A DNA stretch of 64,000 nucleotides. Source: Sphingobacteriia bacterium (GTDB lineage Bacteria > Bacteroidota > Bacteroidia > Chitinophagales > Chitinophagaceae). Made by a program: the position numbers and the translations under genes. The notes below the pieces were generated by a model. The model did no database searches and had not been told where the DNA came from. It was given only the letters and a program-made list of their open reading frames with translations. Below, piece after piece: positions 12,086 through 26,029 of this stretch; the stretch's first letter is position 1; each line of letters starts with the position of its first letter. The DNA lies in contig JANOZT010000013.1 of assembly GCA_031429515.1 (NCBI GenBank), positions 121-64,120 of the forward strand. The letters run 5' to 3'.

Positions 12086-14278
12086 TTATCTTAGGAACAA
12101 CATCTCTCTGTATTTTGGCAAAGTCCATGTTTCGTCGTCCACCAATTGTTCTAATTTATCTACATGGTAACGGATTTCGTCGAAGAAAGCAGATTTAACT
12201 TGACTTTCATAAGCAATGGCTTTTGTGCGAGTGTTTTCGATATTGTTCACAATTTTTCTTGCTTCAACCATACCATGAACTTTGGTATGAATTACTTGAA
12301 TATGCTCACTTACTTCTTTTAGAATGGATAATTGACTTGCATATGAAGACTCAGGTAATCCAGCAGATTTTAACCCATTAACGTTGGTCAATAAATCATT
12401 CTGGTATTTAATTGCAGAAGGCAATATATGGTTGATAGCTAAATCGCCCATAATTCTTGCTTCAATTTGCACCTTCTTGATGTATTTCTCTAATTCAATT
12501 TCATGACGAGCTTCTAGTTCAGTATGAGAATACACATTATTGGTTTCAAATAAATGCTTTGCTTTATCTGTAACCATTGCATCTAAAGCAACTGGAGTAG
12601 TTTTTAAATTAGGTAAACCTCTGCGTTCTGCTTCATGATGCCACTCATCGCTGTAACCATCTCCTTCGAATAATACTTTTTTACTTTCTACAATGTATTT
12701 CTGAATTACATGCATAATAGCAATTTCTTTTTTATCACCTTTTTCAATCAATGTATCTACATCTAGTTTGAATTTTCTCAAAGTATCTGCAACAATCGTA
12801 TTTAATACGGTCATAGAGATGGCGCAGTTTGCTGAAGAACCTACTGCACGGAATTCAAATTTATTTCCAGTAAAAGCAAAAGGAGATGTTCTGTTACGAT
12901 CTGTATTGTCTAGCATCAATTCAGGAATACTACGATGTAAATCTAATTTTAAGATAGCTTCGTCTTGTTCATCAAATTTATGTCCCACTCTTGTTTCAAC
13001 ATCAGCTAATACCTTGGCTAAATATTGACCCACAAAAACTGAAATGATTGCAGGAGGAGCTTCATTGGCACCTAAACGATGATCGTTAGGAGCAGATGCA
13101 ATTGCTGCACGTAAAATATCGGCATAATCATGAACTGCTTTAATAGTGTTCACAAAGAAAGTAAGGAACATCAAATTGGTCTTTGGCGTTTTTCCTGGTG
13201 CTAATAAATTCACACCTGTATCAGTTGCCATACTCCAGTTATTATGCTTACCACTTCCATTAATACCAGCAAATGGTTTTTCATGTAATAATACAACGAG
13301 CTTATGTCTTTTAGCAACTCGACTCATAACATCCATCAAAAGGGTATTATGGTCTACAGCAATATTTACTTCTTCAAAAATCGGAGCACACTCAAATTGA
13401 GCAGGAGCAACTTCATTGTGGCGGGTTCTTAAAGGAATGCCTAATTTATATGCTTCGGCTTCGTAGTCGCGCATAAAAGCATACACTCTTTCAGGAATAG
13501 ATCCAAAATAATGATCTTCTAACTGTTGACCTTTCGCTGGAGCAGCACCAAATACGGTTCTTCCACTTTGCACTAAATCGGGGCGAGCGTTTGCCAAAGC
13601 TTCGTCAATTACAAAGTATTCTTGTTCCCAGCCCAAAGTAGCAGTTACTTTAGTAACATTCTTATCGAAATAATTGCATACTTCAACAGCAGATTTATTC
13701 AAAGACTCTAAAGCTTTTAATAAAGGAGCTTTGTAATCTAAAGATTCACCTGTATAAGAAACGAAAATAGTTGGAATACACAATGTTCTTCCATCACCCG
13801 TTTCAATGATAAAAGCAGGAGAAGAAGGATCCCATGCAGTATAACCACGAGCTTCGAAAGTAGCTCTTAATCCACCACTCGGAAATGAAGATGCATCAGG
13901 TTCTTGTTGAATTAATGCAGCACCGTCAAATTCTTCGATTGCAGTTCCATCACTTTTTAAAGTGAAAAACGAATCATGCTTTTCTGCTGTGGTTCCTGTT
14001 AACGGCTGAAACCAGTGTGTATAGTGAGTAACGCCTTTGCTCTCTGCCCATGCCCTAATACCATTGGCAATCTGACTTGCTACATTTCTATCAATTTTTT
14101 TCCCACCACGAATGCTGGTAGTTAAACTTTTATAAGCTTCATCACTTAAAAATTCACGTGCGGTTTTAAGCGTAAACACACTTTCTCCGAAAATTCCTGT
14201 AATTTTTGTACTAGGTTTTGAGGCAATCCCTTCATTTTCTTTGGAGATGTTGCTAATTGCATTAAATCTTAAAGACAT
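12086..14278 (-). CDS. glnN: Glutamine synthetase type III
   Basis: THWFQPLTG.TAEKHDSF, EPDASSFPSGGLR.TFEARGY, HEKPFAGINGSGKHNNWS, DRNRTSPFAFTGNKFEFRA; 730 aa. Confidence 0.95.
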   Translation of the reverse strand: MSLRFNAISNISKENEGIASKPSTKITGIFGESVFTLKTAREFLSDEAYKSLTTSIRGGKKIDRNVASQIANGIRAWAESKGVTHYTHWFQPLTGTTAEKHDSFFTLKSDGTAIEEFDGAALIQQEPDASSFPSGGLRATFEARGYTAWDPSSPAFIIETGDGRTLCIPTIFVSYTGESLDYKAPLLKALESLNKSAVEVCNYFDKNVTKVTATLGWEQEYFVIDEALANARPDLVQSGRTVFGAAPAKGQQLEDHYFGSIPERVYAFMRDYEAEAYKLGIPLRTRHNEVAPAQFECAPIFEEVNIAVDHNTLLMDVMSRVAKRHKLVVLLHEKPFAGINGSGKHNNWSMATDTGVNLLAPGKTPKTNLMFLTFFVNTIKAVHDYADILRAAIASAPNDHRLGANEAPPAIISVFVGQYLAKVLADVETRVGHKFDEQDEAILKLDLHRSIPELMLDNTDRNRTSPFAFTGNKFEFRAVGSSANCAISMTVLNTIVADTLRKFKLDVDTLIEKGDKKEIAIMHVIQKYIVESKKVLFEGDGYSDEWHHEAERRGLPNLKTTPVALDAMVTDKAKHLFETNNVYSHTELEARHEIELEKYIKKVQIEARIMGDLAINHILPSAIKYQNDLLTNVNGLKSAGLPESSYASQLSILKEVSEHIQVIHTKVHGMVEARKIVNNIENTRTKAIAYESQVKSAFFDEIRYHVDKLEQLVDDETWTLPKYREMLFLR

Positions 14279-14448
14279 AAGTTTTTCTGTTTTTTCTACT
14301 CCAAAATAAAGCTTTTTAAATTAAACCGTCAACTTCTGACGAGGGAAAATCGGTTTTTGGGCATAAAAAGGGTAAAATAAATACATATAATTTATTATAA
14401 TTTGATAGCAGTTTTGTTAGACCAATTTCATGAAACGTATGGACATTA

Positions 14449-14474
14449 AAAAAGCGCCCCAATTGGAGCGCTTT
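14449..14474 (-). terminator. Intrinsic terminator after the 1403-aa T9SS cargo gene
   Basis: On minus strand AAAGCGCTCCAATTGGGGCGCTTTTTT. Confidence 0.7.
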
Positions 14475-14494
14475 GTATGCTAATAGAGTTTGTA

Positions 14495-17400
14495 TTAATC
14501 TTTACCCATTACCAATCTGGTAGCTTTGTATTTTACATTGCTTCCATCAAGACTAATGATATACACTTTTTGACCTTTGTTGATGTTCACATTAACTGGT
14601 ACAGCGTTTTCTCCTTTTGTAGCATTTACTGATTGACTCATTATTACATTACCAGTTCCAGCTTCTGTAACTTTTAAAGTAAGCGAGTAATCTTTATCTG
14701 CTTTAAACTTAAGGTTAAATGTTCCTTTAGAAGGATTAGGATATGCAGTAATATCTTTTGCAGATAAACTTCTGATATAGCCTATATCTTCTTTTGTAAA
14801 TGAAACATTGCTTAATGAAACTTCAACATTGGTATTTTTTCCAGCTGAAGTAGCTCCTAATGCAACAATCAAGGTAGTGATGTCTTTAGGATCGATTGAT
14901 TTATTAGAACCAGCAGATTTAAAGTCGCTTAATGGGATCAAGAAATCTGTCGCATCTTTATTTACAGCGAACTGATAAGTGTATTGATCAGCCCAATTTG
15001 TAATTGATTGTTTTACCAATGTTACTGTTAAAACCGAATTTCCAGCTGCAGTGATTTTCAGTGTTTTGAATGCACTTAGATCCTGTGCTGCACCACCACC
15101 TCTAAGTAATTTATATACTCCAATAAAGTCGGGAGTAGTTGCACTTACATCTACATTTCTGAAAAGATGGAATTCATCTTTAACTAATTGTGCAGTGCTA
15201 TTCTTTACATCAAATTTCTTAACACTTGTTGTATTGGTATTATAATCAACACCCCAAGATCCATCAGCCATAAATACTTCATCTTGCACAACTCCATTCA
15301 TATATAATTTAATGGTTGATTCATACAAGTCTCCAGTTTGAAGAGATATAGTTGTTTTACCATTGGCATTTACTGTGAAAGGAACCGTTCTTTTTGTATA
15401 AACAGTAGTGTTTTCAGTTGCTCTATCTGCCACTTCAAAATAACCACTTGTTCCTGCAGTTAAGTTATTAATGGTCATGCTAAGATTGTCTTCTACACGT
15501 TTACCTTCAGTAATATAAGTTTTTGGTAAACCAGCATTGCTCTTGATTTCATTAACTGGTAATCCAGCAGTTAAACGAGTGATGATATCAGCAGCCATAT
15601 CTGTTGCAAGAACAGGAGAACCACCCCAAAGTTGAATATTGTACATTGTTTCATCAACAGTATAATCTTTATTCAACCAATTGGATTGTATGGTATAACT
15701 ATTTCTTCCAGATTTTGCACCTATGATAAAGCTCATTGCATATTCAATATTACCATCGTTGTTTCTTAAGTTATATTGAACCATATTGATACCTTTTACG
15801 GTAACGTTTTGCATTGCTACTAATTCATATCCTTTCAAACGATCACAAATTGCTTTGGTATGATCGTACACTTCACCTTGAGTTTGAGTGCCAAATGCAA
15901 CCGCTTTAGGAGTATTTTCATTAACGAAGTCAATCGATAATACATCTTTAGCGTTGGTAATTCCAATCAGGTCTTTAGGTGTAGAAACAAAAGATTTAAA
16001 ATTGTAATTGACCAATTGACGAGGAAGAATATCAGACAATTTCAACTGAGATCCAGTTGCATTACTAACGATATTTCCTTTTCTTTCAGCGGATGGCATT
16101 TTACTATAATCAGCTGTTGCTGGAGTACTGTTAATGGCTTTATTGTAAACCCGAAGCGCAATTGCATCGCCTAAGCTTTTACTTTCAACTCCACCGCCAC
16201 CGCCACCACCAACTGAACCTGCAGTTGCAAATCCAAAATCGTAGCTATGGTTATTGGCACCGGAAACACCTGTAGTCATCATTATTGCAGAACGTTTATC
16301 TGTGCCTGCTAAACTCCATGCACTTCCGTCATTGTCTCTTTCATCTGCATTAGGATCTACTCCACCATTATTAGTCAGTGTAATATCATATCCACTCAAT
16401 GGAGCTTGTAATGGTGGTGCTCCTCCATCAAGACCATATATAGAAATAGTAAAGTCTGTATTAGGAGTAAGTTGTGTTAAACCATATTTCTCCGAAGCTG
16501 TTGAAGGTCTAGTAACACTTGGGTCTGAAGAAAATATATAATTTCCGTTTGCATCCGTTACGGCTGAAGCAATTAATGTATAAGCCGAACCTGGTCCAAC
16601 ATATTTAAGTAATTCAACAGTTACTCCTGCTATTCCATTTTCATCCGCATCTTGCACACCATTAGCATTCGCATCAAACCAAACACGGTTTCCAATTTCA
16701 ATTGGAGCTGGTGCAGAAATAATTTCTAAATCTCCTAAACCATTGGCTTTACCAAAAAATTCTACACTTCCACCTTCGTATAAAACTTTACCTGCTTTAG
16801 CAATACCATCTTGAGTAGAATAATATCGAACACCACCAGTATACCAGTTGGTAATAGGGTCAAAAGCAGTTGCAACTAATTCTTTACCTGGAAACATTGC
16901 AATACTACCAGTGCTGGTTTCTTCATGAGAAACACCACCATTAGTACCGTTAGCTGTATTGCCAATTCCCAAAGCACCACCTTGACCATTTTCATAACGA
17001 TCTGTGAAGAAAAACTCTCCACCGCCAGGGCCTTCATTGTTGCCAGCACCATTGGTAGTTATACTTCCACTCGTGCCATTACTTTCTAAAGTGAAGCTGG
17101 TATATGTTCCATTATTTGCAGCTTTTAAAATATCTCCAGCAGCATTTGATGTATACAAAGTGTTATTACCCATGCTTGTTGGAGCTAAATTCTGATTTCC
17201 GGATTGATGCCCAGATCTATCAGTAATGCCCAACATCATTGCACCATCAGCAGGATCAAATTCCAAAGAACTCAACATAGGTTGAGGATAAATAATTTTA
17301 TCTGATCCTGGAGGAATAACTGCTTCTGTAAAATTTCTAGCCCATGGATGCCATGAACCTTGGCACAATGTTGCTGCAGCTATTGTTCCATTTGGATCAA

Positions 17401-18706
17401 CGTAGTTAGAATTTTTATTTACTCCAAAACCAGTATTCATATTGGCTCTACGCTGATAGGTTAGTGGTGCATCTAATACGGTTGTAAACGTTTCTGTTCC
17501 GGGTGTAACGGTTGCACTCACTTTTAACACTACTGCTTTCAACTCAGATCTATTCACTGAAGAATTATCTGGTTTTACACCATCTAATACACCGCCTACA
17601 TAAATAGCACCTCTATAAAACTTAACTGCAAATGGTCTGAATGTGCTGTTACCAGCAGCTACAGGAAATGCATTATAAGCTACAATTTGAGAAGCTAAGG
17701 TTGGAGCAGTTCCATTAGTACCAATATCGACTCTCCATAATTTTTTATCATTTAAGTTGATGATGTATAAATATCTTCCATCATCAGAAATAGCCATTCC
17801 TCCCATGCCTTTTTTGCCTACTTCATCAAATACATTGCCACCAGTCATATCATCTCTATTGGCTTGGTTTCTAGCCTGATTACCAGGAGCAAAAGATCTG
17901 CCAGGCAAAGAGCCTGCGTCAAATGCTGGATTGATCGCATTTAAGTTAACAAAATTTCCAGTGTTGGTTTTAGTTGTTATTGCTTTTGCTCCAGTAGTAA
18001 CATAAATTCCATTCATGCCAAGAGGTCCAAGCGATACATGTCTTTTTACAAAAGCAGCATAAAATAATTTATCTGCTTTTCTACTATAAGCTGTGGCCCA
18101 AACTGAACCAGTTTGTCCCATATCGCTAATCACATTGGCAGCTGCGCCACTTCCATAATTAAAAGCATAAGTATTATCTGCACCAGATGCTGCTGGCCAT
18201 GCACCAGGAACTTGGTTATTACCGTTAGTATAGGATGGTACAACAATTCTTGCAGTTGCAGATTCAATATAATCACCAGGATAATTGATAGCAAAATTTG
18301 ACGTAATAGAAGGAGCTGTTACAAACTGAACACTTGTTTTATTATTTGTACCGTATGCTCCGGGATAATCTTCAGACATCCATCCGGTAAATTCTAAGCG
18401 TACTTTAGTTGCTGCAGAAATTTGACCTGAAGTAAAACTATAGTTGCCATTTGCACCAGATGTTGTAGTTGCTAATAAAGTGCCAGATGCATTATATGCA
18501 TTTACTGTAACTCCAGCAGCACCAGGTTCGTTGTAGCCAACGCCTGTTTCTTTAGTACCAGAAGCATTATAATCTCTAAAAACATTTCCACTGACTTGCG
18601 CGGAAAGTTCTGAAGAGCTAAAGGCAAAAACACATAAGGCAATAGCAATGCCTAATGATTTTTTTGCATTAATAATAATTGAGTAAATTTTTTTCATATA
18701 GTACAT
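14495..18706 (-). CDS. T9SS cargo: SdrD B-like domains + propeller-like region + shared C-terminal module + type A CTD
   Basis: Signal peptide ending AQ; [20 protein letters not shown] and [29 protein letters not shown] (SdrD_B-like); C-terminal AYPNPSKG...GEN CTD. Confidence 0.85.
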
Positions 18707-18874
18707 TTATGATTGAACCCTTGTATAAAATAGTACGGAACGTGTTTTTTTAACAATATTGTGTAAGTGAAAAAACAATTCTTGTAGTATATACTCTACA
18801 CACAACGTAAAAGTAACGAAATTTCTCGAAAAATACACTGTTTGCATATGCTAAAATCCTTACTGAGCAAGACG

Positions 18875-18894
18875 TATACCAACTAGTTTGTATA
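18875..18894. promoter_or_regulatory. 20-bp palindrome TATACCAACTAGTTTGTATA, candidate response-regulator operator
   Basis: 9 of 10 pairs complementary; close copy at 26249-26264. Confidence 0.6.
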
Positions 18895-18985
18895 TTTAGG
18901 TGTTAAATTTTAACCGATTTCAATTTTTTTAAAAGTTTTTTTTGAATATTTAATTTAAATTTACTTGCTGTACATTATAAAACAA

Positions 18986-19978
18986 ATGAATACACATTTT
19001 AATAAAAACAAATATGTCAAAGCGTCGAGTTTTCGATCATATGTAAATTTATTTACAAGTATCAATATTATTTTTCTGTGTTTTTTCATAATTCCCAACA
19101 ACTTGGTAGCACAATCTGCCATTAAGCCCTGCCAAAAGGAGCCAGATTTCATAAAATCTTTGGGATTTGATCCTTTGTGGACAGCATTAAGCACCAGTGA
19201 AAAAAAGCTCACTGGAATTGCTTTGATTGAATTTGAACAGATGGAAGGTCAAAAATCGCCTTCTCCAACAAATCCCAAAAAAACGGTGTATCAAGCTCCT
19301 TCATGGAAATCATTCGGCTATCTTTCCTCGATTGCTTTTGATATTAATGGCAATGCGTATACCATACCAACTCCTTTGATTTCCATGTTGTATAATCCTA
19401 TTGAAAAATTGAATACGATTTATCGATTGGATCAATACACCGGAGTATTGAATGAATGGTTGAATCTTCCGATTAATTCAAAAACAACCACTCGTAATCC
19501 TTTTGGATTATTGGGTATCACTTATGATTGTACTGCTAATATTTTGATTGCATCTACTGTAGCTGGCTCTGATCGATATCAAGAAAAAGGAATGATATTT
19601 TTGATCAATCCAAACACCCAAAAAATCATTGATACTTTAATGCATAAAGATGCAATAGGTCTCAATGTTGCTTTCGACGAAAATAAACAAAAACGATTGT
19701 ATATTGGAAGTGCAAGAAATGGAAATATCATTTCTATTCCAATCAATGCTCAAGGCCAATTAGTAAAGTCTAAATTGCGAAAAGAGCTTAGCTTGCAAGG
19801 GTTTGGGCCTAGAGGCGATGATAAAGCAAGAAAAATAAAAATGGTAGAGGGAGCGCTGATTATTAGTGGTGTTGCATTTAATTATAACTTACAAGCTTCT
19901 AGTGAAAAACCAGAAACAGTATACACTTTTAAGTGGAATACTTCTGCCAAAAACTGGGACTTGATTGACTATAAATAA
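18986..19978 (+). CDS. Secreted hypothetical protein, probable beta-propeller
   Basis: Hydrophobic leader ending LVAQ; repeated strand motifs (SIAFDINGNAYT, GITYDCTANILIAS, GLNVAFDEN..RLYIGS); start 18986 (ATG) or 18965 (TTG). Confidence 0.65.
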   Translation: MNTHFNKNKYVKASSFRSYVNLFTSINIIFLCFFIIPNNLVAQSAIKPCQKEPDFIKSLGFDPLWTALSTSEKKLTGIALIEFEQMEGQKSPSPTNPKKTVYQAPSWKSFGYLSSIAFDINGNAYTIPTPLISMLYNPIEKLNTIYRLDQYTGVLNEWLNLPINSKTTTRNPFGLLGITYDCTANILIASTVAGSDRYQEKGMIFLINPNTQKIIDTLMHKDAIGLNVAFDENKQKRLYIGSARNGNIISIPINAQGQLVKSKLRKELSLQGFGPRGDDKARKIKMVEGALIISGVAFNYNLQASSEKPETVYTFKWNTSAKNWDLIDYK

Positions 19979-19982
19979 GGCT

Positions 19983-21041
19983 ATGAAAAAGCAATGGAGC
20001 ATATTATTTTTTTTGGTGCTAATTATTTTTTCTTCCCTCTTTATTGACCAATTATTTTCTACTCCTATTCATTCTTCCAGTAATTCAAAAATCATTTTAG
20101 GCAGGTATTTATTCTTTGATAATCAATTGTCTTACAATCAAACAAAGTCTTGTGCTTCTTGTCATGATCCACAATTTGCATTTTCAGATGGGTATAGAAA
20201 ATCAGTTGGAGCAGATGGAGAAAATCTTACAAGAAATGCCCCTTCACTTTTAAATACTAAATACTTAAAAGCACTCACATGGGGGGATAGTTCTATTCAT
20301 GAATTTTATCAACAAATGAATTTTCCATTATTTAATGAACACCCAAAAGAATTGGGATGGACCAATAATGAATCGGAAATAATCAACCGTTTTAAATTAG
20401 ACCCTTTTTACCAAACCCTTTTCAGTAACGCATTTCCAAAGGAAAAAAATCCTTTTTCAACATTTTTTTTCCAAGAAGCCATTGCAGCTTTTGAAAATCA
20501 ATTACAATCTCAGAATAGTCCATATGATCAATATGTAAAAGGCAATAAAGATGCGATGAATGAAAAAGCAATCAATGGGTTAGCATTATTTAATTCCGCA
20601 AGTTTGGGATGTTTTAAATGCCATTCCTTGAATGTATCTCAACAACAATTATTGTATGCTAATACTGGTTTGTATAATCTAGATGAAGTTGGATCATACC
20701 CATCTTCAGACCAAGGGCTATATGAAATAACTAAAAACACCAACGACAAAGGCAAGTTTCGTGTGCCCTCATTGAGGAATATAATGCTAACAGCACCCTA
20801 CACACATGATGGTTCTGTTGAAACAATCCAACAAATGATTTATATTTATAAAAGAGGAGGTCGCTTAATTGAAGCGAAAGAAAACAAAGGGGATGGTCAT
20901 AACAATAAAAATAAATCTAGTTTAATAAAAGGCTTTACTTTATCAGATAAAGAGCAAACAGAATTAATTGAATTTCTTGCAGCTTTAACCGATACTAGCT
21001 ACTTAAGAAATAAGCAATTAATGAATCCTTTCAATAAATAA
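19983..21041 (+). CDS. Di-heme cytochrome c peroxidase-family enzyme, MbnH/MauG-like
   Basis: LGRYLFFD..LS, CASCH (20151-20165), CFKCH (20610-20624), NTGLYNLD..G.YP, GKFRVPSLRN..LTAPYTHDGS, GGR.I...GDG..N..KS..I.GF.L; N-terminal signal/anchor. Confidence 0.9.
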   Translation: MKKQWSILFFLVLIIFSSLFIDQLFSTPIHSSSNSKIILGRYLFFDNQLSYNQTKSCASCHDPQFAFSDGYRKSVGADGENLTRNAPSLLNTKYLKALTWGDSSIHEFYQQMNFPLFNEHPKELGWTNNESEIINRFKLDPFYQTLFSNAFPKEKNPFSTFFFQEAIAAFENQLQSQNSPYDQYVKGNKDAMNEKAINGLALFNSASLGCFKCHSLNVSQQQLLYANTGLYNLDEVGSYPSSDQGLYEITKNTNDKGKFRVPSLRNIMLTAPYTHDGSVETIQQMIYIYKRGGRLIEAKENKGDGHNNKNKSSLIKGFTLSDKEQTELIEFLAALTDTSYLRNKQLMNPFNK

Positions 21042-21043
21042 TA

Positions 21044-22831
21044 ATGATTGTACAAATAAAAAATTATTGGATAATAGTGCTTTTGTTAATGAGTTCAATC
21101 ATTGTATCTGCTCAACAAAAAAAATCTCTCCTAAAATCTACCAAAGCCAATGATGCGCTTTATTTGAGTGAGTTTAAAGAATCAGTTTTTGCAACAAAAA
21201 AAATAGACACCACTGCTTTTATTGTTGAACGAAAAAAACAAATCGACTCCATATTACATGATGAAATACCCGTGAAATACTATTCCGATAAAACCGATGA
21301 AAGAACTATGTTGGCGCAAAATATTGCTTTGCAAGACTCTTTTTTTATCAAATATATCTTTGATAAAAAAACGCATCAACCATTGTGGAATGAAATATTT
21401 GGTGTATATCCTGCAAGACCAGGGGATATTAGAAAAGGTGTTGTGAATTTGCCAGGTTCATTAATGCGTATTGAAATGTATAATTATGCGTTGAATTTAA
21501 CTACTATAGGTGTAGTCAATATCATAACACATAAAATGATCAGTGTAGATCACTATCCTCAAATGCAACCAGATATTCCTTCAAGGCTTACTAAATTGGC
21601 GGTAAAAATTGCGGTCAATTCACCTGAAGTGGAGAAAGCACTCGGATTTAAACCTTCTGCTGATTTGCCCATCATGTCGAGTACCAAAACAGCATTGAAT
21701 AGAACAAAATGCGAAAGGTCTCAGCATTTATGTGTTGCACCAACTTTTGTAAAAGGCAATAGAGCTTTATGGGCCATTGTGGACCTTACAGATAATCGAT
21801 TGGTAGGATTACGTTGGACCAATGTTGGGAAAGATGCTGAAAATTTAGTAGTTACAGAAAGAAAATTACAGAATGAAAATATGGCCGATTGTTATTGCGA
21901 AAAAATCAACACGGTTAAAAAAAATAACTGGGCAGTTGATTATGTTTTAACAGCCTCCGATGGACTCATGATTAGTAATGTAAGTTTCAATTCAAACAAA
22001 ATAATCAATAGTGCAAAATTGGTAGATTGGCATGTAAGTTACTCTGGTACTGATGGTTTCGGTTACAGTGATGCTGTAGGTTGCCCAATCTTTAGCCAAT
22101 CGGCTGTAGTGGCAACAGATCCGCCTATTATAGCAGACATAATTGAAGGGGATAGTACAGTTGGTTTTATGCTCGAACAGCGATTCTTCAGCGAATTATG
22201 GCCTATTGCTTGTAATTATAGTTATTCCCAGCGTTTTTTCTTTTACAAAAATGGTCAATTCAGAATGGTTTGTGCAAGTTTAGGAAGGGGTTGTGGAAAT
22301 AATGGAATTTACCGACCTGTGATGCGTATTTCATTTGCAGGTAATAAACAATCGTTTTATGAGTGGGGTAATAATGCTTGGAATATTTGGGACAAAGAAA
22401 AATGGCAATTACAACAACCAACAACATCTTATTCACCCAAGGGATTTCAGTATCAACTCCAAACGAGCAACAACAATGGGTTTTATATAGAGCCAGGCAA
22501 GGGTCAATTTAATGACAGTGGAAGAGGAGATAATGCCTACTTATACATTACTAAAAACCATTTAGATAAAAATGAAGGAGAAACCGATTTGGTAACAATT
22601 GGACCATGTTGCAATATCGATTACCGACAAGGCCCCGAAAAGTTCATTGAACCAAATCCAGAGCAAATTGTTAACACTGACTTAGTGCTCTGGTATGTTC
22701 CTCAAATGAAGAATGACGATACTCCAGGATCCAAATATTGTTGGGCTGAAACCTATTATGAGGGTGGTGTATATAAAATTAAATCTTACCCTTGTTTTGC
22801 AGGACCAATGTTTGTTCCTTTCAAAAAATGA
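21044..22831 (+). CDS. Secreted copper amine oxidase-fold protein lacking the canonical Cu-binding histidines
   Basis: Ordered CAO-like blocks: AIVDLTDNRLV, NWAVDY...GLMISNVSF...WHVSY..GYSD, CNYSYSQRFFFYKNGQF, YLYITKN, EQIVNTDLVLWY; recognised by eye against remembered E. coli TynA sequence. Confidence 0.75.
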   Translation: MIVQIKNYWIIVLLLMSSIIVSAQQKKSLLKSTKANDALYLSEFKESVFATKKIDTTAFIVERKKQIDSILHDEIPVKYYSDKTDERTMLAQNIALQDSFFIKYIFDKKTHQPLWNEIFGVYPARPGDIRKGVVNLPGSLMRIEMYNYALNLTTIGVVNIITHKMISVDHYPQMQPDIPSRLTKLAVKIAVNSPEVEKALGFKPSADLPIMSSTKTALNRTKCERSQHLCVAPTFVKGNRALWAIVDLTDNRLVGLRWTNVGKDAENLVVTERKLQNENMADCYCEKINTVKKNNWAVDYVLTASDGLMISNVSFNSNKIINSAKLVDWHVSYSGTDGFGYSDAVGCPIFSQSAVVATDPPIIADIIEGDSTVGFMLEQRFFSELWPIACNYSYSQRFFFYKNGQFRMVCASLGRGCGNNGIYRPVMRISFAGNKQSFYEWGNNAWNIWDKEKWQLQQPTTSYSPKGFQYQLQTSNNNGFYIEPGKGQFNDSGRGDNAYLYITKNHLDKNEGETDLVTIGPCCNIDYRQGPEKFIEPNPEQIVNTDLVLWYVPQMKNDDTPGSKYCWAETYYEGGVYKIKSYPCFAGPMFVPFKK

Positions 22832-22850: not shown

Positions 22851-23489
22851 ATGAGCGAAAAAATTAACTTAATGATTGCCGATGACCATCCACTTTTTGT
22901 GGAAGGTCTAAAGATGATATTGGGGAGTGATCCAGCAATCAATATTGCAGGTATTGCAAATGACGGCAAGCAGTTGCTGTACTTACTCACTCAGCAACCA
23001 GATATTGATTTAATTTTATTGGATGTGAATATGCCTAACCTAAATGGCTTAGATACAATCAAATACATCAAACAATCTTTCGTTACTGTTAGGGTTTTAA
23101 TGCTTTCTGCATACAATGACGCAAAATTAATTGAGCAAGCAAAAAAAGCTGGCGCAGATGGATACATATTAAAGAACAGTAGCAAAGACGAACTATCGGG
23201 TGCCATTAAAAAAGTTGCCGGAGGTGAGTCTGTTTTCATTTTGGGAAAAGAAGAGAACTTGCCAGATGCTTTCAAAAAATTAGATACCTTTTTACACAAA
23301 TTCAATCTCACTAAGAGGGAATTAGAAATTGTTTATTACCTAAAGCAAACTTACACCAATCAGCAAATAGCAGAAAAATTGCATTTGAGTATTTATACGG
23401 TTGAAACACATCGTAAAAATATCATGCATAAATTACAATTAAATTCCCCAGCGGCTTTGGTTAAATTCATGATTGAATTTAACGTATAA
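22851..23489 (+). CDS. NarL/FixJ (LuxR-type HTH) two-component response regulator
   Basis: IADDH, LLDVNMP, MLS, GYILK receiver motifs; LTKRELEI...TNQQIAEKLHLSIYTVETHRKNIMHKL HTH. Confidence 0.95.
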   Translation: MSEKINLMIADDHPLFVEGLKMILGSDPAINIAGIANDGKQLLYLLTQQPDIDLILLDVNMPNLNGLDTIKYIKQSFVTVRVLMLSAYNDAKLIEQAKKAGADGYILKNSSKDELSGAIKKVAGGESVFILGKEENLPDAFKKLDTFLHKFNLTKRELEIVYYLKQTYTNQQIAEKLHLSIYTVETHRKNIMHKLQLNSPAALVKFMIEFNV

Positions 23490-23536: not shown

Positions 23537-26029
23537 TTATTGTTGTATCAATATTTTCTGTGGTTGAAGTTTGATGCCATTTCCCTCAATGGTTAGTATG
23601 CTAATAGATATACCAGGTAAATTGGTCATCTGAACTGGAACCTGATTTTCTCCTTTCACTACATTGGCGTCTCTGGTAAATAATACTCTTCCGCTTGATG
23701 CATCAGTAATCTTAATAGTGGCAGTAGTATTTACTTCACTATTAAATTTCGCTGTGAATTTTCCTCCCTTTGCAGGATTAGGAAATACATTGATAAATGT
23801 ATTTGTAGCTGCAGCAACTTCATATGGCGCTTTTTTAGAAAAAGCAATATTGTTGATGGCCGCATCAATTGTTGTTGATCTTCCATCAAAAGTTTCGAAA
23901 GCAAATACAACAGTAACTATATCATTGGCTTCAAATCCGGCTGTTGAATTCGTTGCTTTGAAACTACTCAAATCTATTCTGTATTCTTTAAATTCTTTTC
24001 CAATAGTAGTGCTGTATTTAAATTGTTTTTCAAAATCGTTGATGGAATTTTTTGCCAAAGTAATTTTTAGTTTTGCATCTCCTTTAGCGGTTAATACCAA
24101 TGTTTTATATTCACTCAGATCTACTGCAACACCTGCTCCTTTTAATACTTTGTAAGCGGTAATATAATTAGGAGTTGTTGCCTTTATTTTTACATTTCTG
24201 AATACAGGATAGTCTCCTGCAGCAATTCCTTTTGAAGTATCGTTCAATATGCTAAACTCCTTTAATACAGTTTTGGAAGAGTCATAATCAATTCCCCAAG
24301 TGCCATCACTCATATAAACTTGATCCTGTAATTTGCCATTGATATACATAGATACATTGCTCTCAAAAACATCACTCATTGGGAAAGTAACGGTTGATTT
24401 GTTGAATGCATTTAAATTAAATGGAATAGTTCTTTTTGTTTTTATTGTTGCCATTTCGTTGGCTTTCTCTTCCACTTCAAAATATCCACTACTAAAGATG
24501 CTTTGATTATTGATGGATAAATTTAAATTGGTTCCATTACGACTTCCGCTTGTGAAATAAGTTTTAGGTAGTTCTGCGGAAGCAATAAATTGCTGAATAG
24601 GCATTATAGCATTCAATTTGCTCAAAATTTCTAAAGCCATATCTATGCATAAATACGGAGCTGCACCCCAAACCTGGTAGTTGATTAATGTGTCTTCACT
24701 GATATAATCTTTATTCAACCAATTAGATTGAAAAGAGAAACTATTCCTTCCTATTTTTTTACCTACTGAAAAGCTCATTGCATATTCAATATTTCCAGTA
24801 GACTGTTGTAAAGTGTACCTGATAAAATTTAAACTGTTTAAAGAAAAATTCTCCACATTCAATAATTCAGCACCTTTCAATCGATCACACATAGGTTTTG
24901 TATGATCATACATTACACCTTGTGTTTTTGTTGCAAAAGCTACTGCTTTGCAAATTCCATCTTTTGTAAAGTCTACAGATCTTACTTCTTTTGCGTTTGT
25001 AATAAAAGGAATATCTGTAGGTGTAGTTATATAAGCTGTGTATCCAGAATCTAATATGCGTGAAGGCATTAAGTCGGCCAATCTCAAGCCAGTATTAGAA
25101 GAAGTTGCATTGCTAGTGATCATTCTAGACTCAGGTTGGAGTAATTGCATTTGTTGATAATTCACTTCACCGTTACTTCCTTCTAGTAATTTTCCATAAA
25201 TTCTTTTAGCAATTTTATCTCCTAAGCTTTTGCTTTCTAATCCACCCGTATTTCCTGAAAATGAAATTTTTCCATCTATTGTTAAATCAGGAATACTATC
25301 CATTTTGTTGACGCATTCGATCGGTGTAACTGTTGTAAAAAATATCAAATCATTGAAGTCGTTATCACAGCCATTGTTATCTCTTCTAATATCTTCAAAA
25401 CCAATAACAATTCTATTGGAACTAGAATCTCTGAGTAAAACAGTATGTCTTTTATTTGAAACAATAGGTTCAGGATTAAAAGCTGCGGTAGAATACAATG
25501 TCCAGTTTCCAGGAGTTACAATAGTTCCATTCCATCCGTCAGCCATCAATACAAATCCAATACCTGTTTTTGCAGGAAAATTGCCTAAGAATACTTTATC
25601 ACCTGCATTTAATGCACCACCTGCACCATTTTTAGATGCATTGGGAAAAATTATTTTGATTTGATTTGCTGCAGGAGTAGAAGTAGGTGGATTGTCTGTA
25701 TTGAAAGTATAATAACCTAGGGCATTTCTATAACCAGCGCCTTCATCAACAAAAGTAATCCAAATATCTGAAGCACATTTAACATCAATGGTTTCGGTTC
25801 TTCCATCTGCAATTAAACGAGGGTTATAGGTTGGAACTGGTCTGTTCTCTGGCAAAGAAGCGGCAATCTTACTTAGGAATGATGCACTAAGCACATCTCT
25901 AGTTGGCAATAAATAATTTGGTTTCCCTTGATTATCATAAGTGCCTAAATATTGGTATTGGCCAATTGATTTTGTGGAAACTAGAATAAGTATGGTCAGT
26001 CCTAGATAATGCGTAAATTTCTTAAGCAT
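23537..26029 (-). CDS. T9SS cargo: DUF4114-like N-terminal domain + shared C-terminal module + type A CTD
   Basis: Signal peptide ending IGQ; TFVDEGAGYRNALGYY and GFEDIRRD...DNDFNDLIF; C-terminal NVFPNPAKG...GEN CTD; C-terminal ~570 aa colinear with 14495-18706 product. Confidence 0.85.
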   Translation of the reverse strand: MLKKFTHYLGLTILILVSTKSIGQYQYLGTYDNQGKPNYLLPTRDVLSASFLSKIAASLPENRPVPTYNPRLIADGRTETIDVKCASDIWITFVDEGAGYRNALGYYTFNTDNPPTSTPAANQIKIIFPNASKNGAGGALNAGDKVFLGNFPAKTGIGFVLMADGWNGTIVTPGNWTLYSTAAFNPEPIVSNKRHTVLLRDSSSNRIVIGFEDIRRDNNGCDNDFNDLIFFTTVTPIECVNKMDSIPDLTIDGKISFSGNTGGLESKSLGDKIAKRIYGKLLEGSNGEVNYQQMQLLQPESRMITSNATSSNTGLRLADLMPSRILDSGYTAYITTPTDIPFITNAKEVRSVDFTKDGICKAVAFATKTQGVMYDHTKPMCDRLKGAELLNVENFSLNSLNFIRYTLQQSTGNIEYAMSFSVGKKIGRNSFSFQSNWLNKDYISEDTLINYQVWGAAPYLCIDMALEILSKLNAIMPIQQFIASAELPKTYFTSGSRNGTNLNLSINNQSIFSSGYFEVEEKANEMATIKTKRTIPFNLNAFNKSTVTFPMSDVFESNVSMYINGKLQDQVYMSDGTWGIDYDSSKTVLKEFSILNDTSKGIAAGDYPVFRNVKIKATTPNYITAYKVLKGAGVAVDLSEYKTLVLTAKGDAKLKITLAKNSINDFEKQFKYSTTIGKEFKEYRIDLSSFKATNSTAGFEANDIVTVVFAFETFDGRSTTIDAAINNIAFSKKAPYEVAAATNTFINVFPNPAKGGKFTAKFNSEVNTTATIKITDASSGRVLFTRDANVVKGENQVPVQMTNLPGISISILTIEGNGIKLQPQKILIQQ

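Follow-up and report, generated by a model that had tools for sequence, protein, structure and literature searches.

A MauG/MbnH-type di-heme enzyme encoded beside a copper-site-less amine oxidase homologue in Chitinophagales-type Bacteroidota, a candidate maturase and partner pair

The stretch of DNA analysed here, referred to below as the window, comprises 64,000 nucleotides of contig JANOZT010000013.1 from a Sphingobacteriia bacterium (assembly GCA_031429515.1; Chitinophagaceae). It carries a cassette in which a di-heme enzyme of the MauG/MbnH type is encoded next to an exported protein predicted to share the fold of the copper amine oxidases (CuAOs). Four tightly packed genes lie on the plus strand, separated by gaps of 4, 2 and 19 nt, and encode in this order a β-propeller protein, the di-heme enzyme, the CuAO-like protein and a response regulator. 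The first gene (18986..19978, 330 aa) specifies an exported or membrane-anchored protein with an N-terminal hydrophobic helix at aa 9-39 followed by the propeller. The second (19983..21041, 352 aa, ATG to TAA) specifies the MbnH/MauG-type di-heme enzyme, which has a hydrophobic N-terminus and a signal peptide, and the third (21044..22831, 595 aa) an exported protein with the predicted equivalent of the CuAO domains D2-D3-D4 and no copper site, here proposed as the substrate or partner of the di-heme enzyme. Judging from the translations, all three proteins of this triad bear N-terminal export signals. The initial annotation, made from the sequence of the window, had read the second gene as an MbnH-type enzyme lacking its usual partner MbnP; it checked the flanking proteins just for a WxW motif and overlooked that the downstream gene codes for a conserved, copper-site-less CuAO homologue.

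The di-heme protein reaches 369 bits against the NCBIfam model of the MbnH family (TIGR04039), whose curated cut-off is 362.85, and fails the MauG model TIGR03791 with 146 bits against a cut-off of 443.85; its Pfam CCP_MauG score is 144. These scores, a comparison proposed together with the initial annotation, favour its placement of the protein with MbnH. Among solved structures, MbnH (6e1c) is the closest by sequence with 233 bits and approximately 40-44% identity, followed at a distance by canonical bacterial cytochrome c peroxidases (bCcPs, ~100-128 bits), MauG (~75 bits) and BthA (~41 bits). Database relatives carry the names "MbnH family di-heme enzyme" or plain "di-heme enzyme", and several sources call them "cytochrome c peroxidase".

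The residues expected of a MauG/MbnH-type enzyme could be located one by one. The two CxxCH motifs that the initial annotation had pointed out are CASCH (aa 57-61, 20151..20165), which is 100% conserved and belongs to the N-terminal, presumed peroxidatic five-coordinate heme, and CFKCH (aa 210-214, 20610..20624), assigned to the C-terminal six-coordinate heme; these and all further positions given for the cassette lie on the plus strand. W100 (20280..20282) aligns to the CcpA tryptophan and is the equivalent of the inter-heme Trp (MauG Trp93, bCcP Trp94); it is kept in 159 of the 178 members of the clade that holds all CuAO-linked di-heme proteins and in all nine members of the MbnH clade. In a HMMER alignment to MauG chains, the segment ILFY294 of MauG falls on IYIY289 of the window protein (in full IYIY289KRGG), which makes Y289 (20847..20849) the counterpart of MauG Tyr294 and of the Met-ligand position of bCcPs, and thus the tyrosine predicted to serve heme 2 as its axial ligand. 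This tyrosine is conserved at 99% in the clade with the CuAO-linked proteins and at 100% in the MbnH clade. Both the Tyr-His ligation of heme and the role of Trp93 have been described for MauG (PMC6405878).

In these details the initial annotation needs some correction. It had derived the heme-ligating tyrosine from a PY motif, written PY(279)THDG. The motif is present; its number stems from a longer ORF with a TTG start and becomes Y273 when counted from the ATG at 19983. The PY tyrosine aligns with MauG Y278, and the ligand equivalent is Y289, 16 residues downstream. The MbnH-like signature segments cited there are likewise in place (NTGLYNLDEVGSYPSSDQGLYEIT; GGRLIEAKENKGDGHNNKNKSSLIKGFTL), with dot spacing that was approximate for the second. 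Positions that discriminate the CuAO-linked from the MbnP-linked di-heme proteins are few, namely P63, Y71, R72 and D243.

The two CxxCH motifs, the tyrosine at the axial position and the inter-heme tryptophan together form the feature set of the MbnH family, and at the level of sequence the window protein has all of them. Conversely, the canonical bCcP ligand set was not found in its sequence: Tyr289 stands for the methionine and Ala77 (20211-20213) for the distal histidine of activatable bCcPs, and it is at the Tyr289/Met position that the aligned stretch shared with CcpA comes to an end. With the tyrosine at the Met-ligand position, the distal histidine missing and the inter-heme tryptophan kept, the initial annotation was right to prefer the MbnH type over a classical peroxidase, and we class the protein on these sequence features as a MauG/MbnH-type, oxidant-generating enzyme and not as an H2O2-detoxifying peroxidase. 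A periplasmic peroxidase that removes the H2O2 made by a neighbouring oxidase would nevertheless be a natural companion of an amine oxidase, since amine oxidases make H2O2; the di-heme protein belongs to the CCP_MauG superfamily, and the peroxidase label on its relatives points the same way. Such a detoxification pair appears very unlikely, given the missing bCcP features, the scores of bCcPs against the di-heme protein, which are far below that of MbnH, and the poor peroxidase activity of MauG-type enzymes (PMC11892367); moreover, the partner described below lacks the copper site that CuAOs need for the half-reaction from O2 to H2O2.

The absence of MbnP noted by the initial annotation was borne out when the window was searched in six frames with tblastn and phmmer, using as query the MbnP (PF20243) of the MbnP-linked locus L004: no MbnP was found in the 64 kb, the best match having an E-value of 0.047. 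The WxW motif is absent from the translations of all three cassette proteins, in agreement with what had been said of the two flanking ones. PF20243 was also not detected among the called genes of the cassette loci L001-L003, L005, L098 and L099, and genes of copper homeostasis (CopC, CopD, SCO1, PCuAC) were not found near the cassette in the cassette loci inspected. The MbnP-linked mbnH loci L004, L095 and L096 look different, with mbnP (PF20243) immediately upstream of mbnH and overlapping it, and with CopC/CopD, SCO1 or PCuAC-like genes nearby.

Phylogeny leads to the same separation. A neighbour-joining tree was built from 190 sequences with a CcpA as root; in it, the MbnH clade comprises 6e1c and eight database proteins (bootstrap 87/100), and the three members that were looked up (P0118, P0104 and P0119) are all MbnP-linked. 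Two members of this clade, P0100 (549 aa) and P0108 (565 aa), exceed the usual length by about 200 aa and may be MbnP-MbnH fusions or carry an extra domain. The window protein, together with all 70 CuAO-linked di-heme proteins, falls outside the MbnP-linked clade, which answers the question of phylogeny raised with the initial annotation.

Compared with functional MbnHs, the di-heme protein falls short on three counts, having no MbnP partner beside it, no place in their clade and no copper genes around it. The name "MbnH family" attached to TIGR04039 is probably applied to proteins that are no functional MbnHs. That we are dealing with an ordinary MbnH whose mbnP lies elsewhere in the genome, acting in copper homeostasis through Trp-to-kynurenine chemistry, would agree with the passed TIGR04039 cut-off and with the name "MbnH family di-heme enzyme" that NCBI gives to some close relatives. 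We regard it as extremely unlikely: every MbnP-linked case examined has mbnP immediately upstream and overlapping, with copper genes nearby, whereas here and in 70 related loci the genes of the triad occupy that place, copper genes are missing and the protein stands outside the MbnP-linked clade. Since the enzyme is of the MbnH/MauG type, has no MbnP in the window and lies outside that clade, a different substrate is likely. The initial annotation had concluded on a different substrate and hence on new chemistry; its first half is supported in this way, whereas the new chemistry can only be inferred.

The most obvious candidate substrate is the protein encoded 2 nt downstream. This 595-aa protein is extraordinarily conserved and is labelled "hypothetical" everywhere. 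Its Pfam match to PF01179 (Cu_amine_oxid) amounts to 20.3 bits and stays below the gathering cut-off of 27; relatives score 24-28 bits, covering just the first ~50 positions of the profile. When the PDB was searched with a sequence profile of the family, no match was significant, and single-sequence hhalign and hmmsearch comparisons with TynA gave a signal that was too weak. The kinship with CuAOs becomes visible just by two routes. In the first, an AF2 model of the protein (pLDDT 75) was submitted to Foldseek, and all of the 50 best PDB matches were copper amine oxidases (best E = 1e-17), with TM-scores that are low at about 0.3. In the second, the family was aligned by hhalign to a profile of nine diverse CuAOs, which yielded a probability of 93.5% and E = 2e-7 over 476 columns spanning D2, D3 and D4. 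On the strength of the predicted structure and the profile alignment, we regard the 595-aa protein as a remote CuAO homologue.

In CuAOs, the redox cofactor topaquinone (TPQ) is made from a tyrosine within the consensus N-Y-D/E-Y, and the hhalign alignment places the motif C390-N391-Y392-S393-Y394 (22211..22225) of the window protein on this consensus. N391-Y392-S393-Y394 is aligned with N495-Y496-D-Y of E. coli TynA, so that Y392 occupies the position of the TPQ precursor tyrosine (TynA Y466 in mature and Y496 in precursor numbering). The motif residues from C390 to Y394 are invariant in alignment A1. Across representatives at 50% identity, C390 is found in 70 of 71, Y392 in all 71 and Y394 in 70 of 71, and the position of the D/E is variable. 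A second element of the TPQ environment is Y333 (22040..22042) within WHVSY, the equivalent by hhalign of the CuAO active-site Tyr369 in E. coli numbering, which is kept in 72 of 73 representatives; in CuAOs, Tyr369 is hydrogen-bonded to O4 of TPQ. A third is D343 (22070..22072), kept in 70 of 73, which lies in the loop aligned with the region of the catalytic base; D337 is nearby, and the exact equivalence is ambiguous.

The copper site, in contrast, is gone. All positions of the three CuAO copper-ligand histidines (HxH and the C-terminal His) fall into gaps of the CuAO-like protein in the hhalign alignment, and HxH occurs at the copper position in none of 72 representatives of the family. 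The equivalent of the catalytic domain (aa 286-595) contains two histidines only, H330 and H506. The family as a whole amounts to 335 clusters at 50% identity (E <= 1e-3), and conservation was assessed on 72 full-length representatives of such clusters. Near-invariant among them are the cysteines C223, C230, C347, C390, C417 and C566, the tryptophans W296, W329, W386, W550 and W567, the tyrosines Y333, Y392, Y394 and Y423, as well as D306, D343, R428, E452 and E511. As read from these alignments, the family keeps the TPQ environment yet cannot bind copper as CuAOs do. CuAOs are the textbook example of enzymes that process their own cofactor: TPQ forms in them by an autocatalytic reaction that needs just copper and O2. 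Because the copper ligands are absent, the CuAO-like protein should be unable to make TPQ by this known route, a conclusion drawn from established CuAO biochemistry.

To assess how widely the arrangement is conserved, relatives of the 595-aa protein were collected in a scan with one genome per species, which found them in 374 genomes, and the loci of the best 80 were examined by HMM scans of their ORFs. Essentially all of these 80 genomes bear a Chitinophagales-type Bacteroidota label or agree with such a placement, although the labels of some metagenome-assembled genomes are clearly off; the cultured carriers among them include Sediminibacterium salmoneum NBRC 103935, Sediminibacterium sp. 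C3 and Parasediminibacterium paludis. A di-heme gene accompanies the CuAO-like gene in 70 of the 80 loci. In 69 of these 70, no more than 300 nt separate the two ORFs, and the di-heme gene immediately precedes the CuAO-like gene in every case except L084; among the ten loci without a di-heme gene, the contig ends at the CuAO-like gene in six. Where at least 2.3 kb of flanking sequence was available on each side, the full triad was present in 49 of 52 loci, in the order propeller–di-heme–CuAO in 31, di-heme–CuAO–propeller in 17 and CuAO–propeller–di-heme in one. A convergent triad arrangement was seen in L005. Since the triad survives this shuffling of gene order, it is good evidence of functional coupling.

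Within this set, the loci of the S. salmoneum type (L021-L035) stand apart. Their di-heme proteins, of ~305 aa, are just 42-45% identical to that of the window, and their CuAO-like partners are 69-70% identical; the di-heme enzyme has either evolved much faster than its partner or been swapped for a paralogue.

The CuAO-like family also has a deeply diverged branch in high-GC (50-67%) genomes, which are probably not Bacteroidota, and this subfamily keeps the motif in the form C-N-Y-R-Y. Among the high-GC metagenome loci with usable flanks, a different, MauG-like di-heme gene lies beside the CuAO-like gene in six of 15, usually in convergent orientation. The product of this gene scores ~240 bits on TIGR04039 and TIGR03791 alike, under both cut-offs. 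The association of the di-heme and CuAO-like genes is thus either recurrent or very old. Some distant members of the CuAO-like family (P0401, P0407, P0410, P0411, P0414 and P0421) are 700-1100 aa long and carry C-terminal extensions of 150-550 aa.

The β-propeller protein is the least conserved member of the triad. It has no Pfam match and a weak match to YncE; its AF2 model (pLDDT 87) retrieves by Foldseek generic six- or seven-bladed propellers (YncE, strictosidine synthase, PON1 and Drp35) with E-values of about 1e-6. An assignment as PhoX-like was considered and rejected in the absence of a PhoX match in Pfam or NCBIfam. The propeller could in principle itself be the substrate of the di-heme enzyme, in place of the CuAO-like protein: it belongs to the conserved triad, it has an invariant W107 and two invariant cysteines, and in Flavobacterium a MauG-like gene shares an operon with the propeller phosphatase PhoX and has been proposed to act in cofactor supply (PMC8812569). 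This appears distinctly unlikely, as the adjacency of the di-heme and CuAO-like genes is constant in both main gene orders and the propeller gene is the one that shifts from front to back; in addition, the protein is the least conserved of the three and matches generic propellers only, with no cofactor-bearing family, PhoX or other Pfam entry among them. In the distant subfamily, five of the six loci bearing a di-heme gene have no propeller gene, and both occur together in L132 only. As a membrane-tethered protein, the propeller might rather serve as a third subunit, a scaffold or a chaperone.

Considering the conserved gene pair, the missing copper ligands and the retained TPQ tyrosine, we hypothesize that the di-heme enzyme is a maturase that oxidises a residue of its CuAO-like partner, probably Y392, a reading to which we assign a probability of roughly 0.45. 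The system would work like MauG/preMADH and MbnH/MbnP, because the di-heme enzyme is encoded next to the protein that it would oxidise. In the proposed mechanism, the enzyme would act as a periplasmic di-heme oxidase whose cognate partner, in place of MbnP, is the CuAO-like protein encoded 2 nt further on. Its five-coordinate N-terminal heme would react with H2O2, or with O2 plus electrons, to give a high-valent state of the bis-Fe(IV) type shared through W100 with the His/Tyr289-ligated heme. Hole-hopping would then carry the oxidising equivalents into the partner, where a residue, most probably Y392, would be oxygenated or cross-linked. Given the invariant C390 and the other cysteines, the product at Y392 might be a TPQ-like or a Cys-linked quinone, and the maturase step would stand in for the Cu/O2 self-processing that the partner has lost. 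That Y392 becomes a quinone is a more tentative proposal than the maturase role. Equally tentative is the generalization to a whole family of copper-free quinoproteins of the CuAO fold, in which Tyr392, possibly cross-linked to C390 or another cysteine, would be made into a quinone-type cofactor by a dedicated di-heme maturase. It is from comparative genomics and a predicted structure that we infer which protein is the substrate, which of its residues is the target and what chemistry takes place.

Several observations weigh against the maturase hypothesis or parts of it. The margin by which the di-heme protein passes TIGR04039 is just 6 bits, and the monophyly of the CuAO-linked di-heme group is weak, with a bootstrap of 24/100. 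Three loci with good flanks (L073, L081 and L082) have a CuAO-like gene and no di-heme gene within 3-7 kb; in these genomes, the di-heme gene may be located elsewhere or be dispensable. Moreover, MauG and MbnH, the characterised relatives, oxidise tryptophan and not tyrosine, and the partner also has the near-invariant tryptophans W296, W329, W386, W550 and W567; for these two reasons the target residue is uncertain. In the high-GC branch, most loci have no di-heme gene, several have neither a di-heme gene nor a Rieske partner, and eight others carry instead a gene for a Rieske-type [2Fe-2S] ferredoxin that overlaps the 5' end of the CuAO-like gene, which fits an electron-transfer partner equally well. 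The link to a di-heme enzyme is thus not universal over the wider CuAO-like family.

L073 and L082 keep the propeller gene even though no di-heme gene is nearby. The eight Rieske-bearing loci are L111, L115, L122, L126, L129, L134, L137 and L139; the gene is located directly upstream of the CuAO-like gene, often overlapping its start, and encodes a ferredoxin of ~120 aa whose best NCBIfam matches are the ferredoxin subunits of dioxygenases.

The Rieske neighbour hints that the CuAO-like family needs a redox partner, and the di-heme protein of the cassette could fill that role as well: a copper-less, CuAO-like dehydrogenase or reductase would then exchange electrons with a di-heme cytochrome, comparable to the quinohemoprotein amine dehydrogenases. 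A CuAO-like enzyme without copper is also one without the usual O2-reactive site, the ferredoxin gene takes the adjacent position in the eight distant-branch loci, and operon coupling would be equally expected of a redox pair. Nevertheless, we consider the electron-transfer role unlikely for the di-heme protein of the window, which, unlike an electron-carrier cytochrome, keeps the hallmarks of MauG and MbnH, namely the tyrosine at the axial position and a heme 1 whose distal site is open. The Tyr/His-ligated hemes of MauG have low potentials, and such low potentials make them poor quinol acceptors; furthermore, the nearest characterised relatives, MbnH and MauG, modify proteins.

The maturase hypothesis can be set against several known systems. 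The closest in sequence is MbnH/MbnP of Methylosinus trichosporium OB3b (6e1c, 7L6G), which shares with the cassette both CxxCH motifs, the tyrosine at the axial position, the inter-heme tryptophan and the C-terminal GGR...GDG...KS segment, as well as export and an operon with a presumed protein substrate. The cassette differs in having no MbnP (PF20243) in the window, no WxW target and no copper neighbours, and in the position of its enzyme outside the MbnH clade; its partner is a 595-aa protein of the CuAO fold together with a propeller, and the product expected would not be kynurenine in a copper site. The closest in logic is MauG/preMADH, the system of tryptophan tryptophylquinone (TTQ) biogenesis. 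There too, a His/Tyr di-heme enzyme has as its genetic neighbour a quinoprotein that oxidises amines, and the di-heme enzyme finishes the cofactor of this quinoprotein by oxidising it over a long range; in methylamine dehydrogenase (MADH), the cofactor-bearing subunit is paired with a β-propeller subunit. However, no mauA- or mauB-like genes were seen in the cassette, the MauG model is not reached (146 bits), and the candidate target is a tyrosine in a CuAO fold as opposed to two tryptophans in the small TTQ subunit.

From CuAOs themselves (TynA/ECAO, AGAO and HPAO; PF01179), the partner has retained the predicted D2-D3-D4 fold, the N-Y-x-Y motif, a counterpart of Tyr369 and, in the loop of the catalytic base, an acidic residue. 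It departs from them by the deletion of the three copper-ligand histidines and by extra invariant cysteines, including C390 by the motif and a CC pair; it is barely detectable with PF01179, and its gene comes with that of a dedicated di-heme enzyme, in contrast to the autocatalytic formation of TPQ in CuAOs. BthA of Burkholderia (6nx0), which forms a stable bis-Fe(IV) state, offers a parallel as a MauG-type orphan found by its genome context, its substrate not being known; it is distant (41 bits) and lacks the inter-heme tryptophan that the window protein keeps. Finally, the Bacteroidota offer another parallel in the MauG-like gene Fjoh_2477 of Flavobacterium, which belongs to the phoX operon together with the gene of an exported propeller enzyme and is suspected to provide a cofactor (PMC8812569). 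Its partner is the phosphatase PhoX, and a CuAO-like gene has not been reported from that operon; the propeller of our cassette has no PhoX signature, and the two di-heme proteins are likened by operon context only. A search of the literature returned no description of a MauG-like/CuAO-like pairing; an earlier mention of an MbnP-less MbnH group is possible.

The remaining genes around the triad provide some additional context. The fourth cassette gene (22851..23489, plus strand), 19 nt downstream of the CuAO-like gene, encodes a NarL/LuxR-type response regulator and is probably co-transcribed with the cassette. It is an orphan, with no histidine kinase in the cassette; its product is 74-99% identical in almost all Sediminibacterium-like loci, and the gene is nearly absent from the more distant triad loci, L053 being an exception. 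A scan of the locus for sigma-70 promoters gave sites no more numerous than in shuffled sequence, and Bacteroidota promoters differ from the sigma-70 consensus.

Divergently oriented next to the cassette lies a gene (14495..18706, minus strand) for a 1403-aa protein with SdrD_B domains and a C-terminal sorting domain of the type IX secretion system (T9SS), both assigned by Pfam. In L001, L002, L005 and L098, as in many genome loci, the triad has an SdrD_B homologue or a similar giant surface protein next to it; the association is recurrent, not universal. The giant proteins, with SdrD_B and T9SS or CHU_C sorting domains (L002:2575-6729, L005:11827-16987, L098:1-7810 and 12849-19788), adjoin the triad even across differing gene order and lineage, and they are 30-34% identical to the window protein over its N-terminal ~830 aa. 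It would be pure speculation to see in the SdrD_B surface proteins a substrate or companion of the CuAO-like enzyme, for example in a cross-linking of the lysyl-oxidase type. On the other side of the cassette, an 830-aa DUF4114 protein (23537..26029, minus strand) and the 1403-aa SdrD_B protein are paralogous over a C-terminal region of ~570 aa, the last part of which is a T9SS-type sorting domain. The identity of this region is 39-44% by tblastn in related loci, and similar ESKSLGD... segments recur in it.

The window itself derives from freshwater sediment metagenomes. Among sequencing runs, the locus was found only in sediment and freshwater metagenome DNA and in none of the RNA runs.

To our knowledge, MauG-type di-heme enzymes have just two known substrates, preMADH and MbnP, and in both it is tryptophan that is modified. 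Here, an operon joins an MbnH-like enzyme to a copper-less CuAO homologue that retains the TPQ tyrosine, and it thereby offers a concrete and easily testable candidate for a further one. If the maturase hypothesis is true, the CuAO-like protein would represent a third substrate class for MauG-type enzymes and the di-heme enzyme the first Tyr-directed member of the MauG class. Alongside the self-processing of CuAOs, for which copper and O2 suffice, there would then be a second route to a TPQ-like, Tyr-derived cofactor, one that depends on an enzyme and is independent of copper. The pairing of an MbnH-like enzyme with an amine-oxidase-like partner thus points to an undescribed, enzyme-assisted making of a protein-derived cofactor, and the two proteins would belong to a new family of periplasmic redox enzymes that is common in freshwater and soil Chitinophagales.

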